A stretch of 64,000 nucleotides of DNA from Amphiscolops sp. MND2022 (Eukaryota). Under the pieces are notes generated by a model, which saw only the letters and a list, made by a program, of their open reading frames with translations, ran no database searches and was not told the DNA's origin. Made by a program: the position numbers and the translations under genes. The stretch is from contig OZ076409.1 in the NCBI GenBank assembly GCA_964187785.1, positions 36,148,001 through 36,212,000 on the forward strand, in the 5' to 3' direction. Each line of letters opens with the position of its first letter. Positions within the stretch are counted from its first letter, which is position 1. Of the stretch, positions 18,001 to 64,000 are shown in pieces.

Positions 18001-21000
18001 GCAAATACCTTTTTTCCAACTTGGAGGAGTCTCGATCTTGACGACGTTTTCAAAAGAAAAACTTGGTACTTCAGGGAACAATATACAAAACGATTCATGA
18101 CAGCGGTCTTTTTAAAATACACTAAATGGACAAAAAGATTTGCATGGCTACCGATTTTTTTCAAGTGAACTAAAGGGAGGCCGTTTGAGATTTTTTAACA
18201 TCCATTCTGTTGCAAAATATCAGAAAAATTGAAGGGGGACTCTTTGGAGACTCGAGAAAAGAAAATTTTGAACAGTCTCATAATGCCGAAAAATGTGAAA
18301 AAAGGGACCCTCTGCAATTTTTAGCATTCGTTCTGTTGCAAAAGATCAAAAAAATTGAAGGGGGGACTGGACTCTTTGGAGACTCGGAAAAAAACAAAAA
18401 TAAAGATTTTTGAACAGTCTCATAATGCCGAAAAATCTGAAAAAAGGGACCGTGTGCGATTTTTTAGCATTCGTTCTGTTGCAAAATATCAAAAAAAGGA
18501 AGGGAGGCCCTTTGGGGACAATGAAAAATTTTCAAAAAAGACTGACAAAGCCGAAGGGGGGAGTCTGTCAAAAAAAGTGGAACCTACTGCTTCTGATTCT
18601 TGAAAAAAATTTAGTGCATACGCACCGGTTTGAACACGAACCCTCTGGGTTGAAAAGCAATCATCTTACCACTAGACCTCGAACGCCTGAATTCTGCGAC
18701 TTGCCGTGCTTCGCAAACACTTGCGTACCTTTGAGGAAGACCAAATGAGCAATATCATACGGAGAACCAAGGGTAAAAGGACATTATAATATCATCAATT
18801 TTACAACGCCAAAAAATACCCGAAGGGATACGCATAAGTCTCGAAAACCATTTTTCCCCAACTGGAAACAGCGAAAAACCATTTTCTCAACGGAACCCCC
18901 CCACACACACACACACCCTTCAAAAAAACAGCAAAAGGAAAACAAATCGAAATTTCTCGAAAAAACTTTTGAGATGAAGGTCTCCGGTAAGTCGCATAGT
19001 GCCGAAAACCTTGAGGAGTCCTTTGCGCTCGCAAAACGTTTCGGTTCTTGTAAAAATTGAGGGAGGGGAGACTTCGATGAAAACAAATTTTAAAAAACAC
19101 CAGGTCTCTAAAAGAACAAATTTCTAGTATAGCGTGCTGGGCCTGAGAAAACCTAATTTTGGGACAAAAATTATTCATTTTGAAAAATCTCACATTGCCG
19201 AAAACTGCAAAAGGAGACGCTTTGAGATTTTTCAACATCCATTGTTGCAAAATATAGAAAAATTGAAGGGGAAGTCTTCGAGACTCGAAAAAATACAAAA
19301 AGAGAATTTTGAACAGTTTCAATGTCGAAAAATATTCAAAAAGGGACCATTTGCAATTTTTTAGCATTCGTTCTGTTGCAAAATATCAAAAAAATGAAGG
19401 GAGAACCCTTTGGGGACAATAAAAAATTTTCAAAAAAGTCTGACAAAGCCGAAGGGGGGAGTCTATGTCGAAAAAAGTGGAACCTACTGCTTCTGAATCT
19501 TGTAAAAAAATTCGTGCATACGCACCGGTTTGAACGCGAACCCTCTGGGTTGAAAAGCAATCATCTTACCACTAGATCTCGAACGCCTGAACTCTGCGAC
19601 TTGTCGTGCTTCGCAAACACTTGCGTACCTTTGAAGATCAAATGAGCAATATCATACGGAGAACCAAGGGTAAAAGGACATTAGAATATCATCAATTTTA
19701 CCACGCCAAAAAATACCCGAAGGGATACGCATAAGTCTCGAAAACCAATCTTCCCCAACTGGAAACAGCAAAAAACCATCTTTTTAACGGAAACCCCCTT
19801 TCAAAAAACCAGCAAAAGGAAAATAAACCGAAATTTCTCGAAAAAAATTTCGAGATGAAGGTCTCCGGTAAGTCGCATAGTGACGAAAACCTTGAGGAGT
19901 CCCTTGCGCTCGCAAAACGTTCCGGTTCTTGTGAAAATTGAGGGGAGACTTCGATGAAAACAAATTTTAAAAAAACACCAGGTCTCTAAAAGAACAAATT
20001 TCTGATATAGCGTGCTGGGCCCGAGAAAACCTAATTTTGGGACAAAAATTATTCATTTTGAAAATTCTCACATGGCCGAAAACTGCAAAAGGAGGCGCTT
20101 TGAGATTTTTCAACATCCATTGTTGCAAAATACAGAAAAATTGAAGGGGCAGTCTTCGAGACTCGAAAAAAATACAAAAAAGAGAATTTTGAAGTCTCAA
20201 TGTCGAAAAATATTTAACACAGAGGCGAAGCGGTGCTTCGCAACACATGACGAAGACATAGATTATTTTAATATGCGTATATATATTATTTTAATCGCAT
20301 GCGTATATATTCAACAGTTCAACTTTGTTCAATTCGTATATATTCAACAGTTCAACTTTGTTCAATAACGTCCCTATGGCACAGTGGTCAACACTTATGC
20401 CGTGCAATCGGGAGGCTGCAGGTTCGAATCTCTCTGGGGTTTTGGCTTTATTCTAAAAAGCGCTCATTATGAAGTTGACTATTGTGGAAAAAAAAACTTT
20501 CTTAGCTGGACTGCAATGCACATTGACTTCGTCATGTGCAAAAAAGGGACCATTTGCAATTTTTTAGCATTCGTTCTGTTGCAAAATATCAAAAAAATGA
20601 AGGGAGGACCCTTTGGGACAATGAAAAATTTTCAAAAAAGTCTGACAAAGCCGAAGGGGGGAGTCTATGTCGAAAAAAGTGGAACCTACAGCTTCTGAAT
20701 CTTGTAAAAAAAATTCGTGCATACGCACCGGTTTGAACGCGAACCTTCTGGGTTGGAAAGCAATCATCTTACCACTAGATCTCGAACGCCTGAACTCTGC
20801 GACTTGCCGTGCCTCGCAAACACTTGCGTACCTTTGAAGAAGACCAAATGAGCAATATCATACGGAGAACCAAGGGTAAAAGGACATTGGAATATCGTCA
20901 ATTTTACCACGCCAAAAAATACCCGAAGGGATACGCATAAGTCTCGAAAACCATTCTTCCCCAACTGGAAACAGCGAGAAACCATCTTTCTCAACGGAAA

Positions 21001-24000
21001 CCCCCTTTCAAAAAACCAGCAAAAGGAAAATAAATCGAAATTTCTCGAAAAAAATTCGAGATGAAGGTCTCCGGTAAGTCGCATAGTGACGAAAACCTTG
21101 AGGAGTCCCTTGCGCTCGCAAAACGTTTCGGTTCTTGTAAAAATTGAGGGAGGGGAGACTTCGATGAAAACAAATTTTAAAAAACACCAGGTCTCTAAAA
21201 GAACAAATTTCTGATATAGCGTGCTGGGCCCGAGAAAACCTAATTTTGGGACAAAAATTATTCATTTTGAAAAATCTCACATGGCCGAAAACTGCAAAAG
21301 GAGGCGCTTTGAGATTTTTCAACATCCATTGTTGCAAAATACAGAAAAAATGAAGGGGGAGTCTTCGAGACTCAAAAAAAATACAAAAAAGAGAATTTTG
21401 AAGTCTCAATGTCGAAAAATATTTAACACAGAGGCGAAGCGGTGCTTCGCAACACATGACGAAGACATAGATTATTTTAATATGCGTATATATATTATTT
21501 TAATCGCATGCGTATATATTCAACAGTTCAACTTTGTTCAATTCGTATATATTCAACAGTTCAACTTTGTTCAATAACGTCCCTATGGCACAGTGGTCAA
21601 CACTTATGCCGTGCAATCGGGAGGCTGCAGGTTCGAATCTCTCTGTTTTGGCTTTATTCTAAAATGCGCTCATTATGAAGTTGACTATAGTGGAAAAAAA
21701 ACTTTCTTAGCTGGACTGCAATGCACATTGACTTCGTCATGTGCAAAAAAGGGACTATTTGCGATTTTTTAGCATTCGTTCTGTTGCAAAATATCAAAAA
21801 AATGAAGGGAGGACCCTTTGGGGACAATAAAAAATTTTCAAAAAAGTCTGACAAAGCCGAAGGGGGGAGTCTATGTCGAAAAAAGTGGAACCTACAGCTT
21901 CTGAATCTTGTAAAAAAAATTCGTGCATACGCACCGGTTTGAACGCGAACCTTCTGGGTTGAAAAGCAATCATCTTACCACTAGATCTCGAACGCCTGAA
22001 CTCTGCGACTTGCCGTGCATCGCAAACACTTGCGTACCTTTGAAGACCAAATGAGCAATATCATACGGAGAACCAAGGGTAAAAGGACATTAGAATATCA
22101 TCAATTTTACCACGCCAAAAAATACCCGAAGGGATACGCATAAGTCTCGAAAACCATTCTTCCCCAACTGGAAACAGCGAGAAACCATCTTTCTCAACGG
22201 AAACCCCCTTTCAAAAAACCAGCAAAAGGAAAATAAATCGAAATTTCTCGAAAAAAAATTCGAGATGAAGGTCTCCGGTAAGTCGCATAGTGACGAAAAC
22301 CTTGAGGAGTCCCTTGCGCTCGCAAAACGTTTCGGTTCTTGTAAAAATTGAGGGAGGGGAGACTTCGATGAAAACAAATTTTAAAAAACACCAGGTCTCT
22401 AAAAGAACAAATTTCTGATATAGCGTGCTGGGCCCGAGAAAACCTAATTTTGGGACAAAAATTATTCATTTTGAAAAATCTCACATGGCCGAAAACTGCA
22501 AAAGGAGGCGCTTTGAGATTTTTCAACATCCATTGTTGCAAAATACAGAAAAATTGAAGGGGGAGTCTTCGAGACTCGAAAAAAATACAAAAAAGAGAAT
22601 TTTGAAGTCTCAATGTCGAAAAATATTTAACACAGAGGCGAAGCGGTGCTTCGCAACACATGACGAAGACATAGATTATTTTAATATGCGTATATATATT
22701 ATTTTAATCGCATGCGTATATATTCAACAGTTCAACTTTGTTCAATTCGTATATATTCAACAGTTCAACTTTGTTCAATAACGTCCCTATGGCACAGTGG
22801 TCAACACTTATGCCGTGCAATCGGGAGGCTGCAGGTTCGAATCTCTCTGGGGTTTTGGCTTTATTCTAAAAAGCGCTCATTATGAAGTTGACTATTGTGG
22901 AAAAAAAAACTTTCTTAGCTGGACTGCAATGCACATTGACTTCGTCATGTGCAAAAAAGGGACCATTTGCAATTTTTTAGCATTCGTTCTGTTGCAAAAT
23001 ATCAAAAAAATGAAGGGAGGACCCTTTGGGACAATGAAAAATTTTCAAAAAGTCTGACAAAGCCGAAGGGGGGAGTCTATGTCGAAAAAAGTGGAACCTA
23101 CAGCTTCTGAATCTTGTAAAAAAATTTGTGCATACGCACCGGTTTGAACGCGAACCTTCTGGGTTGAAAAGCAATCATCTTACCACTAGATCTCGAACGC
23201 CTGAACTCTGCGACTTGCCGTGCCTCGCAAACACTTGCGTACCTTTGAAGAAGACCAAATGAGCAATATCATACGGAGAACCAAGGGTAAAAGGACATTG
23301 GAATATCGTCAATTTTACCACGCCAAAAAATACCCGAAGGGATACGCATAAGTCTCGAAAACCATTCTTCCCCAACTGGAAACAGCAAGAAACCATCTTT
23401 CTCAACGGAACCCCCCTTTCAAAAAACCAGCAAAAGGAAAATAAATCGAAATTTCTCGAAAAAAAATTCGAGATGAAGGTCTCCGGTAAGTCGCATAGTG
23501 ACGAAAACCTTGAGGAGTCCCTTGCGCTCGCAAAACGTTTCGGTTCTTGTAAAAATTGAGGGAGGGGAGACTTCGATGAAAACAAATTTTAAAAAACACC
23601 AGGTCTCTAAAAGAACAAATTTCTGATATAGCGTGCTGGGCCCGAAAAAACCTAATTTTGGGACAAAAATTATTCATTTTGAAAAATCTCACATGGCCGA
23701 AAACTGCAAAAGAGGCGCTTTGAGATTTTTCAACATCCATTGTTGCAAAATACAGAAAAATTGAAGGGGGAGTCTTCGAGACTCGAAAAAAATACAAAAA
23801 AGAGAATTTTGAAGTCTCAATGTCGAAAAATATTTAACACAGAGGCGAAGCGGTGCTTCGCAACACATGACGAAGACATAGATTATTTTAATATGCGTAT
23901 ATATATTATTTAAATCGCATGCGTATATATTCAACAGTTCAACTTTGTTCAATTCGTATATATTCAACAGTTCAACTTTGTTCAATAACGTCCCTATGGC

Positions 24001-27000
24001 ACAGTGGTCAACACTTATGCCGTGCAATCGGGAGGCTGCAGGTTCGAATCTCTCTGGGGTTTTGGCTTTATTCTAAAAAGCGCTCATTATGAAGTTGACT
24101 ATTGTGGAAAAAACTTTCTTAGCTGGACTGCAATGCACATTGACTTCGTCATGTGCAAAAAAGGGACCATTTGCGATTTTTTAGCATTCGTTCTTTTGCA
24201 AAATATCAAAAAAATGAAGGGAGGACCCTTTGGGACAATGAAAAATTTTCAAAAAAGTCTGACAAAGCCGAAGGGGGGAGTCTATGTCGAAAAAAGTGGA
24301 ACCTACTGCTTCTGAATCTTGTAAAAAAAGTAGTGCATACGCACCGGTTTGAACGCGAACCTTCTGGGTTGAAAAGCAATCATCTTACCACTAGATCTCG
24401 ACCACTAGCCTGAACTCTGCGACTTGCCGTGCCTCGCAAACACTCGCGTACCTTTGAAGAAGACCAAATGAGCAATATCATACGGAGAACCAAGGGTAAA
24501 AGGACATTGGAATATCGTCAATTTTACCACGCCAAAAAATACCCGAAGGGATACACATAAGTCTCGAAAACCATTCTTCCCCAACTGGAAACAGCAAGAA
24601 ACCATCTTTCTCAACGGAACCCCCCTTTCAAAAAACCAGCAAAAGGAAAATAAATCGAAATTTCTCGAAAAAAAATTCGAGATGAAGTTCTCCGGTAAGT
24701 CGCATAGTGCCGAAAACCTTGAGGAGTACCTTGCGCTCGCAAAACGTTTCGGTTCTTGTAAAAATTGAGGGAGGGGAGACTTCGATGAAAACAAATTTTA
24801 AAAAACACCAGGTCTCTAAAAGAACAAATTTCTAGTATAGCGTGCTGGGCCTGAGAAAACCTAATTTTGGGACAAAAATTATTCATTTTGAAAAATCTCA
24901 CATTGCCGAAAACTGCAAAAGGAGGCGCTTTGAGATTTTTCAACATCCATTGTTGCAAAATATAGAAAAATTGAAGGGGAAGTCTTCGAGACTCGAAAAA
25001 AATACAAAAAAGAGAATTTTGAACAGTCTCAATGTCGAAAAATATTTAAAAAGGGACCATTTGCAATTTTTTAGCATTCGTTCTTTTGCAAAATATCAAA
25101 AAAAGGAAGGGAGGACCCTTTGGGGACAATAAAAAATTTTCAAAAATGTCTGACAAAGCCGAAGGGGGAGTCTATGTCGAAAAAAGTGAAACCTACTGCT
25201 TCTGAATCTTGTAAAAAAAATTCGTGCATACACACCGGTTTGAACGCGAACCCTCTGGGTTGAAAAGCAATCATCTTACCACTAGATCTCGAACGCCTGA
25301 ACTCTGCGACTTGCCGTGCTTCGCAAACACTTGCGTACCTTTGAAGACCAAATGAGCAATATCATACGGAGAACCAAGGGTAAAAGGACATTAGAATATC
25401 ATCAATTTTACCACGCCAAAAAATACCCGAAGGGATACGCATAAGTCTCGAAAACCATTCTTTCCCAACTGGAAACAGCAAGAAACCATCTTTCTCAACG
25501 GCCCCCCCCCCCTTTTCAAAAAACCAGCAAAAGGAAAATAAATCGAAATTTCTCGAAAAAAATTTCGAGATGAAGTTCTCCGGTAAGTCGCATAGTGCCG
25601 AAAACCTTGAGGAGTCCCTTGCGCTCGCAAAACGTTTCGGGTCTTGTGAAAATTGAGGGGAGACTTCGATGAAAACAAATTTTAAAAAACACCAGGTCTC
25701 TAAAAGAACCAATTTCTGATATAGCGTGCTGGGCCTGAGAAAACCTAATTTTGGGACAAAAATTATTCATTTTAAAAAACCTCACAATGCCGAAAACTGC
25801 AAAAGGGGGCGCTCTGAGTTTTTTCAACATCCATTCTGTTGCAAAATATCAAAAAAATTGAAGGGGGACTCTTCGGAGACTCGAAAAAAAACAAATAAGA
25901 GAATTTTGAACAGTCCCAATGCCGAAAAATCTGAAAAAAGGGACCTTTTGCGATTTTTTAGCATTCGTTGTTGCAAAATACCAAACAAAATTGAAGGGAG
26001 GACCCTTTGGGGAGAATCCAAGAACGACCATCAAAAATGACATATAAAGGTGTCATTAGATGGGTTTAGAGCACCACGTAGCAATTGGTCGCTTACCAGA
26101 CTGCAATAAGAATCAGCCAGTCGATGAATGAGAGCCAGACTTTGCAGCTTCTTGAACATTGAATGGTGATCTATTGTCTCCACACTCGCATTCACAAACT
26201 GCGTGAATTTTGCACTATCACCTGAAACACCAATCCACTCAAGTATTTCCAACATTATCACATTGACTTGCATATTTTTCTATGTAACTATACTGATCCC
26301 ATTTAACACCTTGTTAAGGAGACGAGCATGTTCAGAATGTTGTAATGAAAACCTCTGTTGAAATACTTTGGAGTCAAGTGGAAACAAACTTTAGAAAAAT
26401 GTCAAGCGTCAGCCTCTTAAGCTGAGAATGAAACCAAAATGAAGGCGCATGTCGCTTTTTCGAGAACGGAGATACGACAATAATCCTTATGAATTTTAAG
26501 GAAGTTTTAATTGAAATGCGTGTTATCAAATAGAGCCCAAAAAATCTGTTGAAATCCAAAGTCCCAGGTCACAACAACAAGCAACGCCTTCCTATTCGAA
26601 CAATGAAGCAGATTACGTCACAGAGAAACAGAAATGTTTGGATGCAACGCTCAATTCTCCACAAGTACAAGCGGCTGTCATAGATAATTTCATACTTGTA
26701 TGCTGTGTTTGAGAACTTCCCTGGGAGTGGTAACCCTTCGTACAACTGCATCAATTCAATTGTTTGGAACTAAACAATAAAATAACCGTTGCGCTGTGCG
26801 ATGCGCATGAAGAACAAACTGGAGCAGTGTCGATGTATACATGATGCCCGCTGCGCTAGTTGGCGCGAAAATGTCAAGGACATACATCCCGTCAATTAGT
26901 TTCAAGCTCATCGGTTGCATTTCTCGTAGCAGCGCTAGCTGCATTGGTGGGAAAATTGCCGTTCGCTAACCGAAGGACATTGTATCACTGGTTGAGTTGA

Positions 27001-30000
27001 GCATTTTCGGAAACGTCTTGTTTTCCAAGTTGTTTCACAAATCCAATTCCAGAAAACGGGGTCTGGGAATGGGGAAGTTCGGCTATTGTCTAACTCTCAT
27101 AATCGAATATCAGACAACAAATTTCAACTTGGCCTACATGCTGCCGAGACTGGCATTGATAATTTATGAGGGGTCAACAGCTAACGTGTTACACCCCTTT
27201 TTCCTCTGCCATAAATTGCCTAATCACTCTCGACAACTCCCTCTGGCTGTGGAAGAGCGAGTTCGAAAATGTTCAACGGGGAAGATATCTTGGATTGCCT
27301 TAGCGATGTTCCGAATTTATTTATGCAAACGAAATATGGCTAGAAAGCTGTGACTGGGCGAATAATTGATGAAAATTGTCATGATTTGGGTCTCCGAAAG
27401 TCGCAGATGGTAAGGAGGCTGTGACTTCTTCTGAAGACTGGTCTCGCCATCATGGCACTTGGGGGTTTCAAATGTGGCAACAGTACTAAAATTTTTGACA
27501 AGAAAGTCCAGGCTTTGAGATTTTTGGATGAAGAATGACGGCACTTTTCGGCGCATCTCACGTTTTTCGGGTGGCTCAAGATTACTCGGAGCGAAGCGAT
27601 AACGTGAAATGTTTGCTTACAAAACATTTAGAAAAATTCTTAGATGAAGTAAATGGAAGTTTCTACAAAGTGTATGAATATGCTTCCAGCTTTTCACATA
27701 TGCAACATTGAAAACTTTTTTGCAGGTTCGACTGAGGATACTTTCGCCTAAACTACGACATATGAGCGTTTCATTTCTAAAAAAATCGACAAGACTATCG
27801 GCGGAAAAATGGAAAATATTTAATCCTAGGTCCTCCACAGCAAAACTGAAGATAGATACAATGGAATGGTTTTCCTTCTAGTGAAGACATACTCTAGGAA
27901 TGAATTTGGCGTGTTTTGCAAACAGAGTCGCTTTCACTCAGTCTTCAGTGGCACCAATATGTTCAATGAGTCAGTTTCAGGTTTCAGCCACTCAGAAAAC
28001 CAACTACATTTTTCATTTTGGATAAAAGACCCAGCTATGAGAGATATTTTCCTCATGGTATTTACTCCTGATTTCTTATTAACTATATCATTAGACTTTT
28101 ATTGCTGCAAAAACAGATAATTCTGATTTTAATTCAATGCTTCGATTGAGGCAACCGATGCTGGTGGGTGGATTTGATCAAGTGACAGCGAACAAAATAA
28201 ATAGACCAAAGATAACCTACGCATAGGTGAGAAAGATTCAAGGATTACATTATGCAACAACAAAAAGTTCATATTTTAAATATCAGTAACACGACTGACC
28301 TTATGTTGAACTACTTTTTCACAGAAATTTCACAACCGAGTCAGGCAGAAAGTTGCATGAATATACAGGACGCCACGTATTACACCATTTTTCATCACAG
28401 TTTTCTTAATCTTACAATGGTTGATTTGGAGTAAGGTGTTCCAATTTATAAATCAGTCCTCCACTTGATGTTATCGAATGTATTTGCGGAGACTGATACT
28501 GCATAAGGCTCTGCTGTTTGCAACGCATTCTCAAACAACTACAGTCAAACTCGGATAAAAGAAACTCATTGGGCGGTGAGAAAATGGTTTCTTTTATCAA
28601 TAGTTTCTTTTATCAGTTGTCCTATTAACGTAGAAAGTTTGACTTGCATAAAATCGGAGGAGTGAAAACGTTTCTTATATCCGAATGTTTCTTTTATCCG
28701 AGTTCGACTGTATTCCTTTTATTGCAGAAGCGCCCCAGTTTCTCTCATGGGCAAGAAATCTTCACATTTCTCGTTGAGTGAGAACGGTCGATTTGGACCA
28801 ACATGTTAGAGCCTGACATTGTAGCATCACTAACTTGATTTGACTTGCTGTGACTTCACTTTGGTGGGAGGCTCGGGCCGGTAGCTTTGACCGGTTGCAC
28901 GTACAAGAGCAGTAATCCACCCGGTGCGTTCGTTCTCATTCTCAGCAGCAAAATCGATCGATTGACCTTCTTTCACTGCGTTGAAATAGAACAACTTTGG
29001 ATGTTGACCTAAAAGATATCAGTCATTTTCTATCTACGAGAGATTACACGGTACTTGACAGGGATACAAAAAGCGTTTTTTCATGATTGAACTGTTTCCT
29101 CGGTGTTTTTTGAAAATACATGTTTTTGCATTTTTAGTCGGCGCCTTTTCCCTTAAGGAAAAAAGCACAACTATTACAGTGGGTAGTTTTTTTTCAGCTG
29201 ACAATCTCACTCTGAATGGTCCACTTTTTTCACAATCTTTTGTTCATTTGTTCAACTAATTTTCTGAGAAGCAGGAGATCGTGGGTTCGATTCTCGCACT
29301 AAACCACAAATTTTTTTTATGCTTCCAAAAGTACAAGTGAGACCAAAGGGTCCCCCCTTTGGGTTTTTGGCACTATGCGAAAATTTTCGAATTCTATCAA
29401 AGGGTACCCCTTGCATTTTTTTGAAGTTTTCGGATTGTAAAACGTTTAATGAGCCTAAATGGCCTTTTTTTGTTTTTCGGCATTGTTCGACTTTTAAAAA
29501 AAATTAATTTTTTCTAAATGTTTCCAATAGTTGTTCCTTGAATATTTTTGAGCCTTAGATATGGCGCCGACTTGGGACGTTCCCGTCTTGTTTTTCCATC
29601 CGAAACCATATTTTAAAAATTGGATAAATGAAAATGATAGTTTCCAAGCTTTTCGAAACCGAGATTGACTTTTAGGATCCGGAACGTCATTCCCATTGTC
29701 CGGAAAATAGATTTATCGAGGCATCCACTAAAAGTCAAGAAAGTATTAATTGAAGTAAAACACTCGTTTTCTTCAAGCGTTTAGAAAGTGTTTTCTTTTT
29801 GCTTGTTTAGAACTTTTTTCTTTTATGACAACCATGGTACTTGATGAGCGACAGTCGGTCAGATAAATTTGGCAAAAAATTCAGGTATGTTTCCAATTTG
29901 GCGTCAACGAACAATTGGTTTCCTGCTGATCAAATGAATCTACAGCCATTTAGCAAAAACAATTGCAGGTATAGCCAGTAGACGGAAACGATTTCTAAAT

Positions 30001-33000: not shown

Positions 33001-36000
33001 TTAACTTTGCTCTATTGTCTTATTCGGTCATGTCGTTGAGTTAGTTTCACCCGTGATTTTGAATTTCACGTATTTCGATTCGATGATATTTTGTCTGCTG
33101 GTATTTTATCCCCTGGTATTTTGACGTGTAACCAAAATACAAATTATAAGCTTTTTGATGAATGATTCGGATTGCATCTGTATCACATCTGAAAACTTCA
33201 AAGAGAATCAAATCGTGATTATGATTAAAGCATTTCTACCAAAAAACGTGGCTCTTAAGTGGCTCAATTGTAAGGTAGACTTGCGTCGCGCTTTGAAAAA
33301 ATATTGCACCCTCTATTCTCTCATTTGAAGTTTTTAGTTCAAAAAGGAAGAACTTGATTCAGCTCACATCAAGCCTAGATTATAATTTCCAGAAGAATTT
33401 TAGACTTGCATAAAGTAACATTTAAAAAAAATAGGCCCCTCCGGGGTACACTATTTCTGCTTTAATCTTTCATTATTAATAGAATCATATCTGGAATGCG
33501 AATACACTCCTGTTTATTCATTATTTAGCGCACAATTAACCACTGTACCAGTTTATACCGCCTATAAATCTCGGCAAGTATAACTACTAAGCGTAGACGA
33601 AGTTTCGCATTCGCATTTGAATGCAGGCGAAGCTCTAGGCGAACGAATAATTAACACTCATTCGCTTCATCTCAATAACTCGGGGCAACGAAAGCATAAT
33701 TACGAACATTCGCTCGCTTCATATCAATGCGGTCAGCGTACGAAGGCATAATTACCACGCGCTCGCTCCATCGCACGAGAATTGAATTGTCGTCGGCAGC
33801 TTGAGAAATTTAATTCTCAAGCTTATAGTCACTGTCGAACAAATCTGAATTTTTCAAAATCACGACAAGAAATTTACTGGAAAGTTGATATCTTGAGGTT
33901 TCAATAATATTCCTGCTATCGCAGAATGAAAACAAAAAAAATCTGAACACAACTCATTAATTTTTGTTTGTATCGAGGGTTCCACTAAGCGGGCAAATTG
34001 AAACGCTTTTGGAAGTCTCTTCTGTTGCAAATCGTTTTTACTATTTTTAATTTAAAACTATATTTATTCACTGATTTTGTTTTATAACATTCAACAGATG
34101 AAATTATTATATTATTTTACTCAACTAAAAGTGCCGACTAAAAACAGCGGAGACGCTTCAATGAACGAGAAACTTCAAGCAAAACAAGATTTCATTTCCA
34201 TAGCAACAAGACGAGGGAGCTGTATCTGATTTTCACACATTGCTTCTGATATTCCATTCGTTCAGTCCAAAGTAATGTTTGAAAATCTTTTTCAAAAAGT
34301 ACAAAACTTGTTTTTGTCAAGATTCGAACTAACGACCCATTTATTACCTGACAGCTCATGGGATTAGCCAAGAAGATAAATTCCGATTGGCAGTTCCGAT
34401 TTAAAAAACGCCAATACTTATCAATATCTTTTTAGTCGGCGCTTCATGAAGTGAAACGCGACATTATAGTGACTTTTTTAATCCACACGAACTGACCAAA
34501 ATAGTTCTTGAAAATTCTACGAAATTTTATGGTCCCAAATTGAATAATTTGGCCTAGCGAACTGAACCAAAAAACTTTTTTCTCTTTTTCCGCGTAACAT
34601 ACAATACCGGGAAAGACTAATGGGCCCCCGCCTTTGTTTTTTTTGGCATTGTGAGACTTTTCAATTTTTTTTCGCCAAAAGGTCCCCCTTCAATTATTTT
34701 GATGTTTTGCGAGAGCATAGATGTTGAAAAAACCCAAATGATCCCTCCTTTCAGTTTCTTTCGGCTTTGTGAGACTTCAATTTTTTAAACCAAAGGGTCC
34801 CCCTTCAATTTTTTTGATATTTGACAACAATGGATGTTAAAAAATCCGAAAGGGTCCCCCTTTTAGCGCACCGATTCGGCCCAACTTTTGTACTGTAAAA
34901 GAATACTTGACACTTTCATGTACTCCAAAAGAATACTTGACACTTTGACGTCCTTTTGCTATTTTTGAGTCTTAGACATGGCGCCGACTTATGCCGATCC
35001 CGAGAAAGACCCAAGGAAGACCACTATTCGTTCCGCTGAAGTTGATTATATTCGGAATCCACTGTAATAAGAAATATTAGAAATTTATAAGTGTTATTTA
35101 GTTTCTTAGATTGCAGCGTCACGCAGAATATTATAATCGTAAATTCTTTTTAGTCTTTGAACGTCGACTGTAACTTGAGGTAGTAAAATATGCCCAAGGG
35201 TGATAAGATCAAAACCAAGGGTGACAAATCAAAGTTAATTACTACGATCAAAACAGTGACGCATGTAATATTTTAAATACTAAAAGTATAAAACTTCACT
35301 CCAATCCAGTCAACTAGAAACTTCCTTATGTTGTTTTTTAACCCCGTTTGACTTGGTGTAATCGGGTCGAATTCTTTTTTTAAAGGTTGATTACATGCAC
35401 CGTCACCTAACACAGATCCCACACCTACAAGTGAAGATTAGTTGTTATTACCATTTACTTTCCCCTTGCAACAAATCAACTAACCGCGTGCTTTAAATAA
35501 ATTAATGACTTGAAATTATGTTAAAGTTGAATTCCCAACTAACAAGACTTTATTTCGCTGAAAAAAATTTCCCTGTCAGCTGGATGGAGCATTACAAATT
35601 TATTAAAGAAGCAATCCAGTTTGATTGGAATCGGTGTTGTAAAAAATAAGCCCATTCAGGTTTATGTTTCTGCAACTGCAAACAAGTTTCAAAATGTTCA
35701 TATATCAATTCCACACGAGTTTGCGCTATGAATCAATTAATAAAAATTTCCGGAAATATACCTTTCGATTCCAAACTGATTTTCTGCAAACATGTTTCAT
35801 TTATGAACTTCGTAAAAGTGCAATTTTAGAGTGATTTTGACTGAAAATATGCAATTATTTACTGCAAAACTTCATTGTACTGAAGCAAACTTGTACAAAG
35901 TCGAGAACTGTCTCAAAAAAGTACTTCGAACTTCAAACTAAATTTTTCAAATTGTAAAAATTCATGTATTTTTTGTTGTTTCATTCAAGGGTAAAACAAC

Positions 36001-42000: not shown

Positions 42001-45000
42001 TATGGGACTCCAATGTTTGGTCAAAACGATTTAAATTTTATTTTGGCGTATTTTAACCTATATTCCAAAATTTGCAAACTGAAAAAGCGGCGCGCTAAGC
42101 AGAGTCAATCGTAATGAAAAGCTGAAGCGAATATGTTTTTCTGAGAAATACTGAACTTACAAAAACAATGCGTAACAAGCCGAACTTTATTGAAAGATGC
42201 CGTACTGTGGTCTTTCAGAAAACGATTTGTAACTCTCACGGCCAGGGATGGGAAATTATTAAATGTGGTCTCATTAAATGTCATTATATTAAATGCATTC
42301 ATTATTTTCCGCCCACATAAATGGGGGAGGAAAATCATGATCTGTGTTGCATTTTTTAAACAAATTCTGCCAAATCTCCACTTTTATTTATTCCATTTAG
42401 TAGAACGATAAACTAGTCACTGGGCACAGTTGGTAGTGCGTCTGCCTGCCAGGCATGAGGCCATAGGTTCGAACCCGGGCTGGAGCGTTAGTGTTTATAG
42501 CGGAAAATATCCCGGTGCTTAGCGGGCGTTTTGTTGAATATTCGAGCGTTTGCAATAACATTCAAATGATGCTAAAATTTCAACACATGCTGCCATTAAT
42601 TTTTCTTTTGGACTTTTGGATGCAGCAAGATTCCTGTTTTACCACCGACCACGTTTCGATATACAGTACACGTTCTGGTAACATTTCTTTTTTTTTCGTC
42701 GAAGAATGAAAACCAGTAATCACAAGATGCGGAATAGTTCTTCAGACAGCCTTTCTATTATTGTGAAAATTTCGGTGTTGTGCAAAATATTGACATCCAA
42801 AGTTCCGATACAGAGCAGTGTATTGCTTTGAATAAAATTAACCATTTAACATGTTTCTATGTATTTCTGAATCGATTGGACGTGCATGTATTTCATGTAA
42901 TTTTATAAGCCTCATGTACCTCTATCATGTATGTAGTAAAAAACGCTCTTCGGCAAACATACAATTTCTCAAATCAATGTTTAACAGAAAAAACAAGCCG
43001 GGACCGGCCCAAGTCGGCGCCATATCCAAGGCTCAAAAATAGCAAAAGGACATCGAAGTTTCAAAGTATTCTCTTCTACAGCACTAAAACTTTTTTTGAA
43101 AAAAGTCTCACAACGCCGAAAAAAATTGAAAGGGGGACCCTTTGGGATATTTCTATACCCAGTCTGTCGCAAAACCCAAAAAAAATGAAGGGGGGACCCT
43201 TTGGGAAATTTTTTTTCCCGAAAAAAGTCTCGCAATGCCAAAAAAAACTGAAAGGTGGGACCCTTTGGTCTCGTCCGGCAGTGTATGTTATGCGGGAAAC
43301 TTTTTGGTTCTGTTCCCTGGGCCAACAGATGAAATTTGAAATTTTGTAGAACTTTTGGTAGAACTATTTTGGTCAGTTAAGGTGGTCTTAAAAAAACACT
43401 GACGAAAAGCCATGACTATAGTCGACTCTTTTCTCTAGAAAAGCGTCGACTAACAACTTAGTTTTTCGAGAGTTTCTGCCTTCGTCCTGTTTCTTCGGTG
43501 ACCGGTCCGATGTCCGAAGGCCCCAGAGGCTGAACAGTCTCTCTACAGAAGCCAAAGAGCAAGGGCACGATAGAACTTCTACGACGGCATTTCGAAACTC
43601 TAGACTGTCGTCGAAGTTTGTGTTATTGAACAAATTTGCTTGAATGATTTTGCAAGCACTAGTTCCCGCTGTTCAGAACGGGACGTCTAGCGGCTCCTAA
43701 TTTATTTGCTTCCAATCGAAAATTCTAATTACTTCTAATTAAATTTCTTCAGTTGCTAGTTGCTTCTAATTCATCTACATGTTACGATAACAAATTACGA
43801 TAACGTAGTCAGCTATGTTCACATACTCCTAGTACCCTAAATGCAGGAGCGAAGCGGAGCGACGTGCCATATGGCCATGCCTCAATGTTGCTACTTGGCG
43901 AAGGGAGCGAAGCGACCGAGCTATACAACAAATATGCTAACCTCTTCAAATAATAACGTGAAAATAATTGCTGATATGGAATTTTTCAGGACCAACTAAT
44001 TTTAGAAGCAGCTAGATTTAGATGCAACTCGTCATTTCAAAATTAGAAGCAAATAAATAAGGAGCAACTGGGCTTGTATTACATGTATTGGCGCCAAGTA
44101 GCCTTATCCGCTTGTCTTGTATCAGTATGCTATATACACGTGTATTCCTTACATGGACATGTACTTGTAACAATACACTGATAGAATTAATGCAGTTCAA
44201 ACAAGACGGGAACGTCTAAAGTCGGCGCCATATCTAAGGCTCAAAAAGCGCAAAAGATTTTTTTTGGAAAAAAATTGAAATTTTTGAAAAATTTTTTTGC
44301 TTTCAAAAAAAGTCGCACAGTGCCGAAAAATGTAAAAGGGGGACCCTTCTGGATTTATTAACATACATTCCGTTGCAAAATATCAAAAAACTCGAAGGGG
44401 GGACCCTTTGGGGACAAAAAAAATTTTCGAAAAAAAAGTCGCACAGTGCCGAAAAAAACTCAAAGGGGGGACCCTATAGTCTCGTCCTGTTTTGTATATT
44501 ACGATAAAAATGGACTTACTGAAAGGGGGGACCCTTTGCACTATCTCAAATGCGCTGCCAGTATTTTAGTAGTACTGTATTTAGTAGTTGAACGTTAATT
44601 TTAACGTTCGACGCTTCGAGTCTGTCCTAAATAAAAAAAAAAGAAAAAAAACGAGTGACTGTAATAGTCGGGCTCTTTTCTTAAGAAAAGCGCCGACTAA
44701 AAATACCTCCATTCGGGACGAATATCAACTTTGATGGAAGAAAATCCGACTTAGAAAATATCTTTGAATTGAAAAAGTCCACTACGGGGAAAATTTCAAT
44801 TTACCTACAAGAATTTCTTCCAATTTTGCGCCAAATTAAAAAACTGCCTCCACTCTGGTTTCAACAGAAAAGAACGAGCTTTTTCGGTTCTTCTTTCGAT
44901 TCTACAGTCTCATCAACGACTGAATATGGCGATTGAGAATTTGCGAAACAATATTATTGTAAAATGAAACGCATCCGATGAGAAATAAAATGCTGTTTCG

Positions 45001-47911
45001 CCAATATTTCTTCACATATTTGAGTTTTTAAACTTATATTTATGCCCATTTTTCGTTCATTTAAAACATATAAATCCGGTCCCTGTATGAAAGGCTAATG
45101 AGATTGAATCATCAAATATCAGTACTATGTTCATCAGATCGAAGAGTCGGTAACTATTCACGACTCAGGATATAAAAGGGTCAATGCCAGACACTAACCA
45201 TCAGTGGAGTCCTTCATGTTTCCGCTTTTGGCAGGACTGATGGGTGCCAGCGCAGACTGTGAAGTGGACAGTCCTCTCTGTTTGGAGCCGGCATTCAGAG
45301 GCGAAACTGGCGCCAAGTGAGACGCCGAACCAGATCTGTTGTCAGCACGTCGTCCAGGGGGTAACACATAACCTAAACGTACTTCATCCACAACACCAGT
45401 ACAAAGAATCCAAACTGTAAGAATCCATTCAGTCCAAAGAATCCATTCAGTACAAAGAATCAAAACTGTACAAAGTGCTGAAAAATTCAAGAATTTTGCA
45501 GATTCGAGTTGTTTGCAGGGTTTGACTTAGCACGAATTTTTAAAATCGAACAGTTTTTATTAAAGTATGGTTCATTACAATCAAATAATGTGAATAGCAT
45601 CATTTCATTAGAACTACCCCATAAGCTTACAACCAGAATGAACGCTTAAATGAGAAGGCCACAAAAATCTCGGTCTCGGAACAAAATAATTGTAAATAAT
45701 TGAAAAAAACTTCAAGTTGAGAAAAAACAGGATATAAAAAATACCACATAGTCAATGACACTGTTTTGAACGCCATTTTGCTTGAGAGTAACATTCAAGT
45801 TCATAGTTTCAAAACTCAGATTCGTCTAACATGTCTGCAAATTTCCACCTATTTAGAACGAACATGAAGATTTTTAGTTGAAACTGCGAAACATTGAAAA
45901 TGCCACAAAACAAGGTGCGTGACAAAAATCCAAAATTTAGTCTTTGAAATTTAAGATAGACGACCAAACATCTACATGTAATAATTTTTATTTCAATTTC
46001 TGGAGCGTCATTTTTCTACCTACATTGTTGCTTTTGCTTCAAAAACATTTTTTGCAGCATCTTCGGAAGTGGAAATTACAACAACAATCATGAAAAGTCA
46101 AGATTATTTCAATATATCATTGCCTACTTAGCAATTTTACGTGCACAAACAACTGAAGAAGGCATTATGTTGCCAAAAAGTCTGCTTTCAAGTCGGAAAT
46201 TGAGCCAAATATATGTCACATTGCAAGCATCAATTTCAAAAGGAGAGAAGCAGCGACCGACTTTCCCTTTAACAGCCTGTTTGAAAAAGAATTGTGCAAT
46301 TCATCGTCAGAAACAGGTGGTTTGACACAGTAATGCCGCGTGTAATACATTACATTGCAGGTTGAAAAAAAAAGAGTTATACTAATAAATAGAAAATCAA
46401 AGCATGATATAAGCCTAAGGACAGTCAAATTCAAAAGTAATTTTTAAACAGAGGCGAAGCCGTGCTTCGCAAACACTTGCGTACTTTTGAAGAAAACCAA
46501 ATAAGCAATATGAAAGGAGAACCAAGGGTAAAAGGACATTAAAATTTCATCAATTTTACAATATGCAGCGCCAAAAAATACCCGAAAGGATACGCATAAG
46601 TCTCGAAAACCATTCTTCCCCAACAGAAAACAGCAAAAAACCCATCTTTCTCAACGAAAAACCTTTAAAAAACAGAAAATTCAGGAAACAATTTTTCGAA
46701 AATATTTTTGATGGTCTCCGGTAAGTCGCATAGTGCCGAAAACCTCGAGGAGTCCTTAACTCTCGCAAAACGTTTCGTTACTGGCAAAAATTGAGGAGGG
46801 GCTCGGTGAAACACCTGTCTTCAAAACAACAAAAATCGGATATAGCGTGCCGGACCTGAGAAAACCTAATTTTAACACAAAAATTATTCCTTTTGAAAAA
46901 TGTCACAATGCCGGAAACTGTGAAAGAGGGGACCCTTTGAGATTTTTTACCATCCATTCTGTTCCAAAATTTCAAAAAATGGGGGACTCTTTGGAGTCTT
47001 TAATAAAAATTTTCGAAAAAAAAACAAAAAGAGTAATTTTAATGGCAGTCTCATAGTGCCGAAAAATCTGAAGGGACCCTTTGGGAATTTTTAACATTCG
47101 TTCTGTTGCAAGATATCAAACAAAGAGAAGGGTGGACCCTTTGTAGACATTAAAAATTTTTGAAAAAAAAACAAAAAATGAAACGGGAGTCTTCAAAAAA
47201 ATTTCGAAAAAAAGAATTTTGAACAGTCTCATAGTGCCGAAAAAAGTTAGAACCTTCTGCTTCGGAATACTTGTGAAAAAATAAGCGCATACCCACGGGT
47301 TCGAACACGAAACCTCTGGGTTGAAAAGCAAACATCTTACCACTAGACCACGAACGCGTGAAATGTGCGACTTGCCGCGTGAAATGTGAGTTGTCGCGCG
47401 GACAAAAAAGCACCCGCACTTTCCCATAACACTTGCTTATCGCAAGTAAAATTATGAAATTGATGGGTTAAATGCTTATCAGTTAGCATGGAACTTCTAA
47501 TGGAAATTCAGGGGTTGTGATTTACCTGTATCAGGATTTTTAGCTGTATAGTCAGCACAAGGGCCGCGTAAAGTACTTATTAGAGCACCATTTCATGCTG
47601 CGCCGACTAGACATGGTAATACTCATTAAACTGCACGAGCTTTCAACTTGAAACTTCCAACAAGTTTGCAAACAAGGACAATGTCTTAGACAGAAAAAGT
47701 TCAAAAACACAGTTCGAAAGCACTTCAAAGAAATCTCCATTCATCTTCCAGACAAGGATACATTGAACATACTTCGATAATGGTAATTATACATGAAAAG
47801 AATTAAGAAAAAAGGTTTACCGGGCGGCAGACAAAGACCTCTGCTGTCTGGCTGATAGAAGTAATCGGTTTCTGTTTCAGACTCGTCTTCCTCTGACGAA
47901 ATCTCAATCAT
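2912..47911 (-). CDS. CADPS: Calcium-dependent secretion activator (CAPS/UNC-31), spliced gene span; 17 coding exons in window, 3' part outside window
   Basis: Exons assembled by hand; all have GT..AG boundaries and matching phases. Peptides match remembered CAPS motifs: [15 protein letters not shown]2 ([14 protein letters not shown]), PH ([17 protein letters not shown]), [47 protein letters not shown]. Confidence 0.95.
3285..3551 (-). repeat. 3' LTR
   Basis: One mismatch to 8967-9233; PPT AGAAGGGAGGAAA (3564-3552) is adjacent. Confidence 0.97.
3637..8913 (-). pseudogene. gag-pol polyprotein (Zn knuckles, aspartic protease, RT, RNase H, integrase) broken by frameshifts and stops
   Basis: [14 protein letters not shown] knuckle, VDTGS protease, WLDD RT, TDAS..ELELLAV RNase H, HFGH..CVAC and D,D,E integrase. 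Lesions near 8332, 6424-6434, 4882 (TAA) and 4294 (TAG). Confidence 0.93.
8953..8966 (-). promoter_or_regulatory. Primer-binding site, probably tRNA-Ser
   Basis: TGGCGCAGTCAGCA abuts the 5' LTR; complementary to ..TGCTGACTGCG-CCA, the 3' end I recall for invertebrate tRNA-Ser. Confidence 0.8.
8967..9233 (-). repeat. 5' LTR
   Basis: Direct repeat of 3285-3551, followed immediately by the PBS. Confidence 0.97.
9850..10260. repeat. Dispersed repeat, second copy at about 31959-32392
   Basis: Colinear similarity from ttctatcatagc to ggtcatctctg. Confidence 0.7.
12932..13253 (+). mobile_element. piggyBac-like non-autonomous repeat
   Basis: Starts TTAA-CCCTAAATGGACCAGG; partial inverted match CTAGGTCCACTTT near 13240-13252; homologous to 1-277. 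Confidence 0.55.
14877..14940 (-). CDS. CADPS: CADPS coding exon 16 ([21 protein letters not shown])
   Basis: 64 nt, phase 2-0, gtgagt donor. Confidence 0.95.
15290..15861 (-). mobile_element. HINE family A copy (5' end intact)
   Basis: Ends tagtcgcgtttgacttcatgaagcgccgactaaaaa; internal aaggggggaccctt repeats. Confidence 0.8.
16279..16380 (-). CDS. CADPS: CADPS coding exon 15 ([21 protein letters not shown])
   Basis: 102 nt, phase 2-2. Confidence 0.93.
16455..17002 (+). mobile_element. Tc1-family transposon, internal-deletion derivative
   Basis: 30-bp TIRs TAGATCGTTTCAAAAAGTTCGCGAG(G/A)CTAG with one mismatch; TA on both flanks. Confidence 0.92.
16532..16966 (+). CDS. Truncated Tc1 transposase, N-terminal HTH DNA-binding region only (144 aa)
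   Basis: HTH ([18 protein letters not shown]), GRK linker, [12 protein letters not shown], ending at IFSD (first catalytic Asp motif) next to the right TIR. Confidence 0.8.
   Translation: MRGKRTSDDLAKSMYRFKDANPDYANSAIARVFSISEPTLRGILKRRIGQKKVKLGRKSVLTRRIKRQLLGRVNRNSKLRPSDLLLTARRLVSNATAHHFLKNRDIRNSVVVQDVLTNAQKDRRVNWCRRRLFFDFTKSIFSDD
17369..17556 (-). CDS. CADPS: CADPS coding exon 14 ([25 protein letters not shown])
   Basis: 188 nt, phase 0-2, strongly conserved CAPS peptide. Confidence 0.95.
20216..20541 (-). mobile_element. HINE family C (~325 bp); further copies at 21425-21746, 22629-22954, 23836-24158
   Basis: 12-bp subterminal IR CACATGACGAAG, 5' hairpin, 3' stem-loop GCGAAGC-ACC-GCTTCGC; inserted in an A/T tract without TSD (empty sites near 19338 and 25048). 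Confidence 0.85.
20370..20441 (+). ncRNA. tRNA-derived cassette inside HINE family C (4 copies); not a functional tRNA
   Basis: A box TGGCACAGTGG, B box GGTTCGAATC, followed by TTTT; stems imperfect. Confidence 0.65.
26097..26221 (-). CDS. CADPS: CADPS coding exon 13 (..[17 protein letters not shown])
   Basis: 125 nt, phase 1-0, gtaagc donor. Confidence 0.9.
28542..28710. mobile_element. pogo/Tigger-like MITE
   Basis: TA|CAGTCAAACTCGGATAAAAGAAAC..GTTTCTTTTATCCGAGTTCGACTG|TA. Confidence 0.88.
28835..29008 (-). CDS. CADPS: CADPS coding exon 12, end of PH domain ([20 protein letters not shown])
   Basis: 174 nt, phase 1-1, gttagt donor. Confidence 0.9.
29131..29595 (+). mobile_element. HINE family A, complete copy with B-box segment
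   Basis: TTTTTAGTCGGCGC 5' end; GCGCCGACT plus hairpin plus TGTTTTT 3' end; close relative at 61599-62144. Confidence 0.85.
30759..30937 (-). CDS. CADPS: CADPS coding exon 11, PH domain ([27 protein letters not shown])
   Basis: 179 nt, phase 2-1. Confidence 0.95.
31072..31235 (-). CDS. CADPS: CADPS coding exon 10 ([18 protein letters not shown])
   Basis: 164 nt, phase 0-2. Confidence 0.9.
31303..31414 (-). CDS. CADPS: CADPS coding exon 9, C2 domain ([20 protein letters not shown])
   Basis: 112 nt, phase 2-0. Confidence 0.92.
33429..33932 (-). mobile_element. HINE family D copy
   Basis: Homologous to 54118-54666; CCCC-TCC-GGGG hairpin and TATTTCTGC subterminal repeat. Confidence 0.8.
34429..35002 (+). 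mobile_element. HINE family A copy
   Basis: tttttagtcggcgcttcatgaag 5' end, ggcgccgact 3' subterminal repeat. Confidence 0.8.
36911..37117 (-). CDS. CADPS: CADPS coding exon 8, start of C2 domain ([35 protein letters not shown])
   Basis: 207 nt, phase 2-2, gtaaga donor. Confidence 0.92.
37613..37791 (-). CDS. CADPS: CADPS coding exon 7 ([20 protein letters not shown]..)
   Basis: ttccag acceptor, gtattt donor, phase 0-2. Confidence 0.9.
37895..38055. mobile_element. pogo/Tigger-like MITE
   Basis: 19-bp perfect TIR CAGTGGATCCCGGATATAA, TA on the left flank; partial copy near 35028-35065. Confidence 0.88.
38557..38637 (-). CDS. CADPS: CADPS coding exon 6 ([27 protein letters not shown])
   Basis: 81 nt, tttag/gtgaga, phase 0-0; not in the ORF track. 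Confidence 0.9.
39204..39500 (-). CDS. CADPS: CADPS coding exon 5 ([23 protein letters not shown])
   Basis: 297 nt, phase 0-0, conserved [16 protein letters not shown] motif. Confidence 0.95.
40708..40942 (-). CDS. CADPS: CADPS coding exon 4 ([27 protein letters not shown])
   Basis: Hallmark CAPS motif; phase 2-0. Confidence 0.95.
41272..41404 (-). CDS. CADPS: CADPS coding exon 3 ([17 protein letters not shown])
   Basis: ttcaag acceptor, gtaggc donor, phase 1-2. Confidence 0.85.
41520..41845 (-). mobile_element. Degenerate HINE family A copy (another near 40112-40420)
   Basis: tctaaggctcaaaaa and cactataatactcgcg..gactaaaaa end motifs. Confidence 0.65.
42415..42528 (+). mobile_element. tRNA-derived SINE-like head
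   Basis: GGGCACAGTTGG A-like box and GGTTCGAACCC B box; downstream aaaatatcccggtgct(t/c)agcgg also occurs inverted near 17681-17705. Confidence 0.6.
42990..43455 (-). mobile_element. HINE family A, complete copy
   Basis: aacaagccgggaccggcccaagtcggcgcc at one end, tagtcgactcttttctctagaaaagcgtcgacta hairpin at the other. Confidence 0.85.
44199..44703 (-). mobile_element. HINE family A, complete copy (clearest exemplar)
   Basis: 5' near-palindrome TAGTCGGCGCTTTTCTTAAGAAAAGAGCCCGACTA; 3' GCGCCGACT then AGACG-TTCC-CGTCT then TGTTT; internal tandem repeats; no TSD. Confidence 0.88.
45199..45372 (-). CDS. CADPS: CADPS coding exon 2 (low-complexity N-terminal region)
   Basis: tttag acceptor, gttagt donor, 174 nt open, phase 1-1. 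Confidence 0.75.
46446..47451 (-). mobile_element. HINE family B, complete solo copy (parent type of the 18-26 kb array)
   Basis: 5' TTTT-ACTTGC-GATAA-GCAAGT hairpin; 3' CGCAAGT then GCGAAGC-ACG-GCTTCGC then CTCTGTTT. Confidence 0.85.
47287..47357 (-). ncRNA. tRNA-derived cassette (resembles tRNA-Gly TCC) in HINE family B; 7 more copies in the array
   Basis: GCGTTCGTGGTCTAGTGGTAAG (A box), GTTCGAACC (B box), T-tract a few bases downstream; anticodon stem broken. Confidence 0.65.
47821..47911 (-). CDS. CADPS: CADPS coding exon 1 ([30 protein letters not shown])
   Basis: ATG at 47911, acidic SSEEDE start like the CAPS N-terminus, GTAAAC donor, phase 1 fits next exon. Confidence 0.8.
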
Positions 47912-63019: not shown

Positions 63020-63429
63020 CTAAATTAAACAGCAAACCCATCATTATTTCATCCAATGCTCCCTCTGAGATATACATGTAGTGTCTGTATTTCTTTACAC
63101 TACAATGTAGGGAACCATCAATCGAAGGTCCATTTAAATCATTACATTTGTCCGTCAGCCTTGAATTCAATTCAAATTATGAAAAGGAATGAAATTGAAA
63201 CACTAATGGAAAGCTTCCATGTGTAAAAATGTTTATCCTATATTGAACAGAAGATTATTGTTCGTTTACCACGTATAGTTGATATGCTTGCCTCAAAGTC
63301 ATGATGGAAACATATCAAGGTCAAGTTAAGAATTGATAACCACGACAACGTACAAATATATTAACTAAGAGGACTAATTGTTTATTTTCAACCTGATCAA
63401 ATGTAATCTGACTACAAATTATGTAGTCT

Positions 63430-63505
63430 GGCCACTCGACCTCAGTGGTTAGAGGGTGTGGCTGGGATGCAAGATCAATGTGAATACGAATCCGGGGGTT
63501 GAATA
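63430..63505 (+). other. Highly degenerate tRNA-derived fragment
   Basis: cctcagtggttagag A-like box and decayed B-like atacgaatcc. Confidence 0.35.
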
Positions 63506-64000
63506 CATTTGCTTGCGGGGCTAGTGTACTACTCCTTTAGTTTTTTTTCGATTTTTTCAGTTAGGAAAAAAGCCTTTCGAGCAGTGAATTGGATCGCTTG
63601 TAAGCGAAAGCGACGTAATATCGGAATAAGTACCGAAAGCGACGGCTGAAATTTGCGCTTATTTGATTGGAAATTTTTAGCAAATTTGTAAAAAAAAGTG
63701 CTCAGAACTTACAGTGGTAAGTTTTTTACCGCACATTTGACCCGACAGCGGTACAGTTGAAAGATGTCTTTTGTGGTGGTAGTCTGTTGAGAAAAGGGAG
63801 TAATCGACCTTCGGTTTTTCAGCATTGTGCGACTTTTCGAAACTTTTTTCAAATCATCAATCGGAATTTTTGAAGTTTCATTCAGGGAAAATGAAACATG
63901 AACGTGAAGAGTCCTCTTTGGGTACATTTCGGCTCTAAGATTCATGAATATTTTCCCAATAATTGTTCCTGAGCACTCATAAAAGACTTTGCTCTGTTTG

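Follow-up and report, generated by a model that had tools for sequence, protein, structure and literature searches.

Recurrent tRNA-like cassettes in HINE-type elements of an acoel

The window and its HINE-type elements

The window analysed is a stretch of 64,000 nucleotides from Amphiscolops sp. MND2022 (contig OZ076409.1, positions 36,148,001 to 36,212,000). CADPS lies on its minus strand, with exons between 47863 and 2913, one of which is 88% identical to the proteins of the acoels Symsagittifera and Convolutriloba. The elements B, C, D and A29k (Table 1) lie within this span and are thus intronic. A CADPS intron also holds an LTR retrotransposon (3282-9233) with 270-bp LTRs that are 99% identical, and with reverse transcriptase, RNase H, protease and integrase zinc-binding domains.

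Table 1. Positions of the HINE-type elements and their tRNA-like segments in the window
Feature	Position	Strand	Remarks
Family B HINE	46449-47447	−	Only copy with both ends; T-runs outside on both sides
tRNA-like cassette of B	47287-47357	−	Sense to element
Tandem array of truncated B unit	18172-26017	−	Unit ~0.9 kb, 1.2 kb with C; both B termini missing
Array cassettes, seven copies	18616-18686, 19516-19586, 20719-20789, 21925-21995, 23130-23200, 24335-24405, 25226-25296		
Family C HINE	20218-20539	−	Inside A/T run of array unit; carries the 3′ hairpin of B
Further C copies	21427-21744, 22631-22952, 23838-24156		Repeated with the array unit
tRNA-like cassette of C	20370-20441	+	Antisense to element
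Other C cassette copies	Starts 21579, 22783, 23990		
Family A HINE (A29k)	29136-29590	+	tRNA 3′ half 29264-29304
Second copy of A29k subtype (A61.6k)	61604-62138	+	Lies inside another A copy; 3′ half of a tRNA at 61746-61786
Outer family A copy	61298-62334	+	Different tRNA 3′ half 61379-61422 (A61.4k)
Candidate fourth HINE (D)	42303-42589	−	Single copy; hairpin 42299-42340; arms 42343-42356 / 42574-42587
tRNA-like head in D	42415-42486	+	Anticodon GCC; D stem intact

HINE and DINE-1-like elements are described in passages of Thomas et al. (2014, PMC4067079) as non-autonomous relatives of Helentrons with subterminal inverted repeats (subTIRs), a 3′ stem-loop and insertion at T-runs without true target duplication. 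Families A, B and C have ends of this type. The subTIRs are 12 bp and perfect in C, 9-10 bp in A, and 7 bp with an additional internal inverted repeat in B; those of A and B (7-10 bp) are shorter than the 12-15 bp given in PMC4067079, and the 7 bp of B falls below a published range of 11-15 bp. The stem-loop near the 3′ end of B and C has a 7-bp stem (−7.5 kcal/mol), and its motif matches the window at five places compared with none expected. The corresponding hairpin of family A is weak (−3.3 kcal/mol, z = −0.14). Copies of A and B have T-runs on their flanks; comparison with empty sites is possible for C alone, where insertion into a run without true duplication is seen. The elements are 0.2-1.0 kb in length and, as judged by eye, have no coding capacity, containing only short low-complexity frames. 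No Rep/Helicase frame was recognised among the open reading frames of the window, six of 48 of which were scanned in Pfam. The families are HINE-type non-autonomous elements, and Helentrons are their likely mover. Lack of coding capacity, nesting and clustering are further likenesses to the HINE and DINE-1-like elements described in parts of PMC4067079 and PMC2374699.

The intact family B element begins with the 5′ subTIR and the internal inverted repeat, continues through the cassette and the core repeats, and terminates with the 3′ subTIR and the 7-bp hairpin. In the tandem array the 5′ region of B is joined to the loop of the 3′ hairpin via a 4-nt microhomology, and the unit is therefore without either B end. 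The array starts and stops within core repeats, and has the appearance of a concatemer formed from an aberrant circle without element ends. The four C copies are near-identical and occupy one and the same position in the unit. The C site is empty in array units at 19320 and 25030, and filled and empty sites differ solely in run length. An earlier note on this DNA had listed seven array copies of the B cassette, and four copies of a C cassette of opposite orientation. All are present, and the C orientation is as it was given, but they are not independent, the former being units of one array and the latter a single insertion. We therefore rejected the seven and four copies as independent evidence, since they are products of array growth; the independent observations in the window are B twice, C once and A in two subtypes.

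The ends of family A differ from those of B, while the internal core repeat is common to both. tRNA 3′ halves are found in three of the 10 aligned copies of family A, in one homologous slot. The B-box segments that the earlier note described in this family lie where it placed them, but none has an A box, and they are confined to those three copies. At 60615-62334 at least three family A copies are nested by insertion into one another's T-runs, and three 57-bp 5′ units stand there in tandem. We infer that the 5′ unit of the outer copy has been displaced to 60620-60728 by a nested copy. A weak, decayed tRNA-like segment is located between 11-nt inverted arms at 63398-63511 (model R1 E 2e-4; nhmmer E 0.4-0.7); it adjoins a degenerate family-A-like copy, immediately upstream of it.

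From its sequence D may be a fourth HINE. The candidate has a z of −1.9, its inverted arms match at 12 of 14 positions, and its presumed 5′ end has no adjoining T-run. A structural HINE finder recovered only C, missing A, B and D, and returned one to four matches per shuffled window at a looser setting, so that it cannot validate D.

tRNA-like character of the segments

The cassette of B was the only match in the window made by ARAGORN at a threshold of 95%, with none at default settings. The Rfam tRNA model scores it at 19 bits (E 0.14), compared with a gathering score of 29, and scores the head of D at 17.4 bits; no Rfam tRNA match was made to the C cassette. In profile searches using nhmmer, with each profile built without the segment under test, B was found with E 0.002 and C with E 0.0008. 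A29k gave E 9e-5 to 0.002 in four of five profiles and 0.37 in the fifth, and A61.4k gave E 0.0015-0.2; the best match to reversed sequence had E 1.4. A profile built from the second organism alone (see below) gave non-significant values of E 6.8 for B and E 1.9 for C. The leave-one-out searches reject a chance origin of the segments, and together with the ARAGORN match they bear out the earlier description of the B cassette as tRNA-like. That the segments are working tRNA genes is rejected by the absence of default ARAGORN matches and by a best Rfam score well below gathering. The recurrence of genuine tRNA-derived cassettes in these elements is highly probable.

The isotypes are less clear. 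The anticodon loop of the B cassette reads TTC in the Rfam alignment, compared with the 'Gly-like' assignment made previously, and it contains a T4 run. BLAST against phage sequences gave a best match to C with E 0.7, with several of the matches being annotated tRNAs, and matches to B that were mostly protein genes.

Both the A and B boxes are found in the intact B element, in C, in L024/L008 of the second organism and in D (where G replaces the first T); family A has the B half only. In the array cassettes the A box is damaged, the first T being lost in all seven and a further G in six. A strict B-box consensus motif occurs at four sites (three subtypes) in the 7.6 kb of A, B and C elements compared with 0.17 expected, and at one site compared with 0.87 expected in 49.8 kb outside HINEs; the segments themselves were mostly found via their B box. 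D is excluded from this count because its limits were drawn after the head had been seen; with it the count would be six, its palindromic site being counted twice. Paired A and B boxes number two within HINEs (three with D) compared with 0.04 expected, and none outside compared with 0.17. The ~50 kb of non-HINE DNA in the window contains at most two tRNA-like segments.

The stems were said earlier to have decayed, and this holds only in part. The D stem is intact in B, the T stem of A29k has five of five pairs and the acceptor stem of C has six of seven. When the RNA of eight cassettes was folded and compared with shuffled sequences none was better (z −0.97 to 1.23). Outside the B box the masked similarity among B, C and the two A segments is low, with z mostly <2 and a value of 3.7 for B with C.

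Placement and conservation of the cassettes

A single metagenome scan for the hairpin of B and C returned 25 loci (L001-L025). All but one derive from one assembly and contain elements with B-like ends, these 24 eukaryotic loci having been fetched by the hairpin motif itself. The other, L009, has a GC of 0.60 and was set aside as a match due to chance. The second organism is an animal-type eukaryote, as seen from exons of ARPC4 and EF-2 (named matches 63-79%). Twelve copies span the slot, of which three have a full cassette (L024, the second L008 element and L010), L016 has a 5′ half and eight have none. Not included are L009, L013 (a mini-element of 80 nt), and copies truncated where a contig or locus stops (L001, L003, L004, L005, L007, the first L008 copy, L012, L015, one L017 copy, L018, L019, the second L020 copy, L022 and L025). 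Across 11 loci Rfam gave no match to the tRNA family and a sole match, to a tmRNA end, at L010 (E 0.016). The head of D is 71% identical to the L024/L008 cassette over 91 nt, including ~30 nt past the tRNA frame (masked z 11-14). The cassette at L010:903-973 (−) folds into a tRNA shape without a D arm, in which the acceptor and T stems are paired. HINE copies are adjacent or head-to-tail at L017:1-620 and L020:924-1478, and a long, near-perfect MITE-like palindrome at L011:1239-1344 leads to spurious miRNA matches. Five pattern scans of a viral collection gave four empty results and 33 loci in the fifth, with the hairpin in none, and a scan of prokaryote genomes gave two hairpin matches with no element seen behind either.

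The near edge of the 72-nt frame lies 89 nt from the 5′ end of the element in B, 97 (A29k), 111 and 112 nt in A, 98 nt in C and 103 nt in D, and in the second organism 100 nt in L024, 107 nt in L008 and 108 nt in L010. In all nine measured elements, which range from 226 to 999 nt in length, the frame thus lies 89-112 nt inside the 5′ end; three of the nine ends were placed by comparison with sister copies. The orientation is sense in A and B, and antisense in C, D, L024/L008 and L010. The probability of such spacing under uniform placement is 5e-5 for five groups (without D), 0.005 for three and 0.13 for two; with placement limited to 60-200 nt it becomes 0.003, 0.07 and 0.31 respectively. The distance from the 5′ end was chosen as the measure after looking at the data, and the probability depends on the number of independent captures. 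These could be as few as two (one sense and one antisense) or as many as six to seven.

The terminator of a tRNA gene is expected at about frame position 78-81. The first run of four or more T after the B box starts at 78-81 in B (T6 at 78), both A subtypes, L010, L008 and a free tRNA 3′ half in an intron of L022, and elsewhere at 71 in C, 113 in L024 and 115 in D. The earlier note had pointed to the closeness of a T-run behind the B box. The position in most subtypes supports this, but closeness by itself is weak evidence because the sense strand of A and B is rich in T-runs, T4 lying within 20 nt at 54-57% of positions. The fixed position is more telling than the closeness. The T-run position, the 89-112 nt spacing, the head of D and the look-alikes in the second organism are new with respect to the earlier note.

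A further expectation, whose failure the earlier note had listed among the refuting outcomes, was that the boxes should be better conserved than their flanks. The B boxes are not. Between the intact B element and the array units the A box matches at 10 of 12 positions and the B-box region at nine of 11 (82-83%), compared with 63 of 71 (89%) for the cassette and 89-91% for the 3′ flank; this comparison may include relaxed copies, since array units are not expected to move as HINEs. Between L024 and L008 the boxes are 91-92% identical and the flanks 85-93%. A29k and A61.6k agree at 29 of 29 positions, with flanks at 89-94%, over a segment too short to count. The cassette is absent from most sister copies (seven of 10 in family A and eight of the 12 that span the slot in the second organism). 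Of the proposal that cassettes have been repeatedly captured and retained, the recurrence stands, and extends to the second organism; repeated capture with retention has weaker support than was claimed, as the independent captures may number only two, the cassette is optional and the boxes of B show no excess conservation.

Origin and possible role

The presence of tRNA-like cassettes in HINEs is real and recurrent. By a small margin over its rivals, and with a little less than even confidence, we favour a reading of these sequences in which captured tRNA-gene DNA is kept next to the 5′ end for the binding of TFIIIC. Capture would occur at the DNA level, by template switch or by composite rolling-circle transposition, from a tRNA gene, a tRNA pseudogene or the head of a SINE, and the DNA would land in the variable slot that follows the 5′ terminal module. 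The B box would then bind TFIIIC, whereby the 5′ end would stay accessible to the Rep nickase, giving an advantage in mobilisation that would be helpful rather than required. Binding of a factor is favoured because the occurrence of both orientations, and of forms with the B box only, at one distance suits an interaction of TFIIIC with DNA better than an RNA product. Sites with only a B box bind the factor without transcription at the extra-TFIIIC sites of yeasts. Random capture seems unlikely given the rarity of tRNA-like DNA outside these elements in the window. The earlier note had offered a small RNA, chromatin opened for Rep nicking, or insulator activity; factor binding and open chromatin would fit best, and a small RNA worst.

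It is also quite possible, if rather less so, that the cassettes are passive cargo with a bias in capture, having no function and decaying. Helentrons target T-runs, which would include the terminators of tRNA genes, so that tRNA DNA could be captured at an above-average rate, land in the variable slot and be spread among families by module swapping. The many copies without a cassette, the lack of excess conservation and the A-box loss seen both in the array and in family A are consistent with this. The core repeats common to A and B suggest that their sense cassettes may be one capture. Moreover oyster HINEs have a conserved left flank of 50-100 bp followed by a variable segment (section 7 of PMC7492417), so that any cargo would sit near this position, and T-rich targets are preferred (part of PMC4067079). 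Targeting of terminators accounts for the sense cassettes but not the antisense ones, and the low similarity of B, C and A outside the B box would require that captures happened separately at one distance, or that a single old capture has kept mainly its boxes.

Two further alternatives are each improbable. Ordinary tRNA-SINEs could have inserted into the HINEs and been trimmed afterwards; D and L024/L008 share sequence past the frame, like a SINE head with body, and free tRNA-like pieces exist (the L022 intron, and weakly at 63430-63500). An inserted SINE would begin with its head, and carry a 3′ tail and a target duplication, but the heads lie inside HINE ends, neither a poly-A tail nor a flanking duplication is visible when L010 is compared with its cassette-less sisters, and a T-run lies directly behind most frames. 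Abundant free SINEs are not seen in the non-HINE DNA of the window, and insertion would not fix the distance. Ordinary SINE insertion, named earlier as an outcome that would overturn the idea, is therefore not favoured. Equally doubtful is a functional small Pol III RNA, acting as a primer, decoy or guide in transposition or in escape from silencing. The full A box, B box and T-run of the intact B element and of C would suit it, as would the analogy to Cassandra and Helenus (described in part of PMC10886601). Against it are the mixed orientation, the missing A box of family A, the T4 inside the B cassette and the failure of all eight cassette RNAs to fold better than shuffled sequences; moreover a DNA element needs no RNA template.

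In A and B a conserved left flank is followed by a variable segment, tandem repeats in the centre, and the 3′ subTIR with a palindrome, a layout also given for Cg_HINE in sections of PMC7492417 and for pearl/DTC84 in sections of PMC3879986. The main text on Cg_HINE makes no mention of tRNA, whereas full tRNA frames are found here. For pearl/DTC84 that text reports no complete A and B boxes and a Pol III promoter that is lacking or incomplete, making a partial precedent. The words 'tRNA', 'SINE' and 'pol III' do not occur in the main text of PMC4067079, and DINE-1 is stated in passages of Yang and Barbash (2008, PMC2374699) to be without Pol III promoter motifs or similarity to tRNA, unlike the cassette-bearing elements. 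Helenus, Ajax and Cassandra (TRIMp3; Kojima 2024, PMC10886601, main text) have likewise captured a segment of a small-RNA gene, of which the promoter motifs are kept and the fold has decayed. They belong to the LTR retroelements, which depend on an RNA template, whereas here the carrier is DNA and the cassette is optional and in either orientation; the main text does not contain 'Helitron', 'Helentron' or 'DNA transposon'. HaSE2 is also a chimera of a tRNA head and a DNA transposon, but parts of PMC3272025 present it as a SINE that starts with this head, is flanked by target duplications and derives its 3′ part from mariner. HzSINE1/MINE-2 is another such chimera, with HINE-like ends in HzMINE-2 (parts of PMC9659126 and PMC3845634), and HzSINE1, should it have real A and B boxes, may be one earlier case. 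Full-text searches returned no account of HINEs with tRNA cassettes; repeat databases (Repbase and Dfam), the original reports of pearl, MINE-2 and Lep1, and supplements may hold examples.

The absence of Pol III motifs is one argument by which DINE-1-like elements were kept apart from SINEs (in part of PMC2374699), and tRNA frames in HINEs blur that test. Such HINEs can be mistaken for SINEs or tRNA pseudogenes in annotation. If the spacing of ~100 nt holds genome-wide it would provide a testable cis rule for the way non-autonomous rolling-circle elements reach the nickase, and also a route for the spreading of TFIIIC sites. On a wider reading, which we consider unlikely though worth stating, unrelated HINE families in different animals would repeatedly recruit a TFIIIC site derived from tRNA genes, set ~100 nt away from the place of 5′ nicking, as a built-in means of opening chromatin. 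DNA transposons would then have their counterpart to SINEs and TRIMp3, with TFIIIC insulator sites scattered through host genomes.

Other repeats are present in the window. Three occur as two copies (1-284/12925-13218, 987-1068/43836-43912 and 9838-10259/31941-32392), some being rich in GC hairpins and none having a tRNA-like match. A 2.55-kb head-to-tail duplication (98%) at 53771-58859 overlaps a LINE-type reverse transcriptase frame (52500-54224), and a related fragment is located at 33428-33926.
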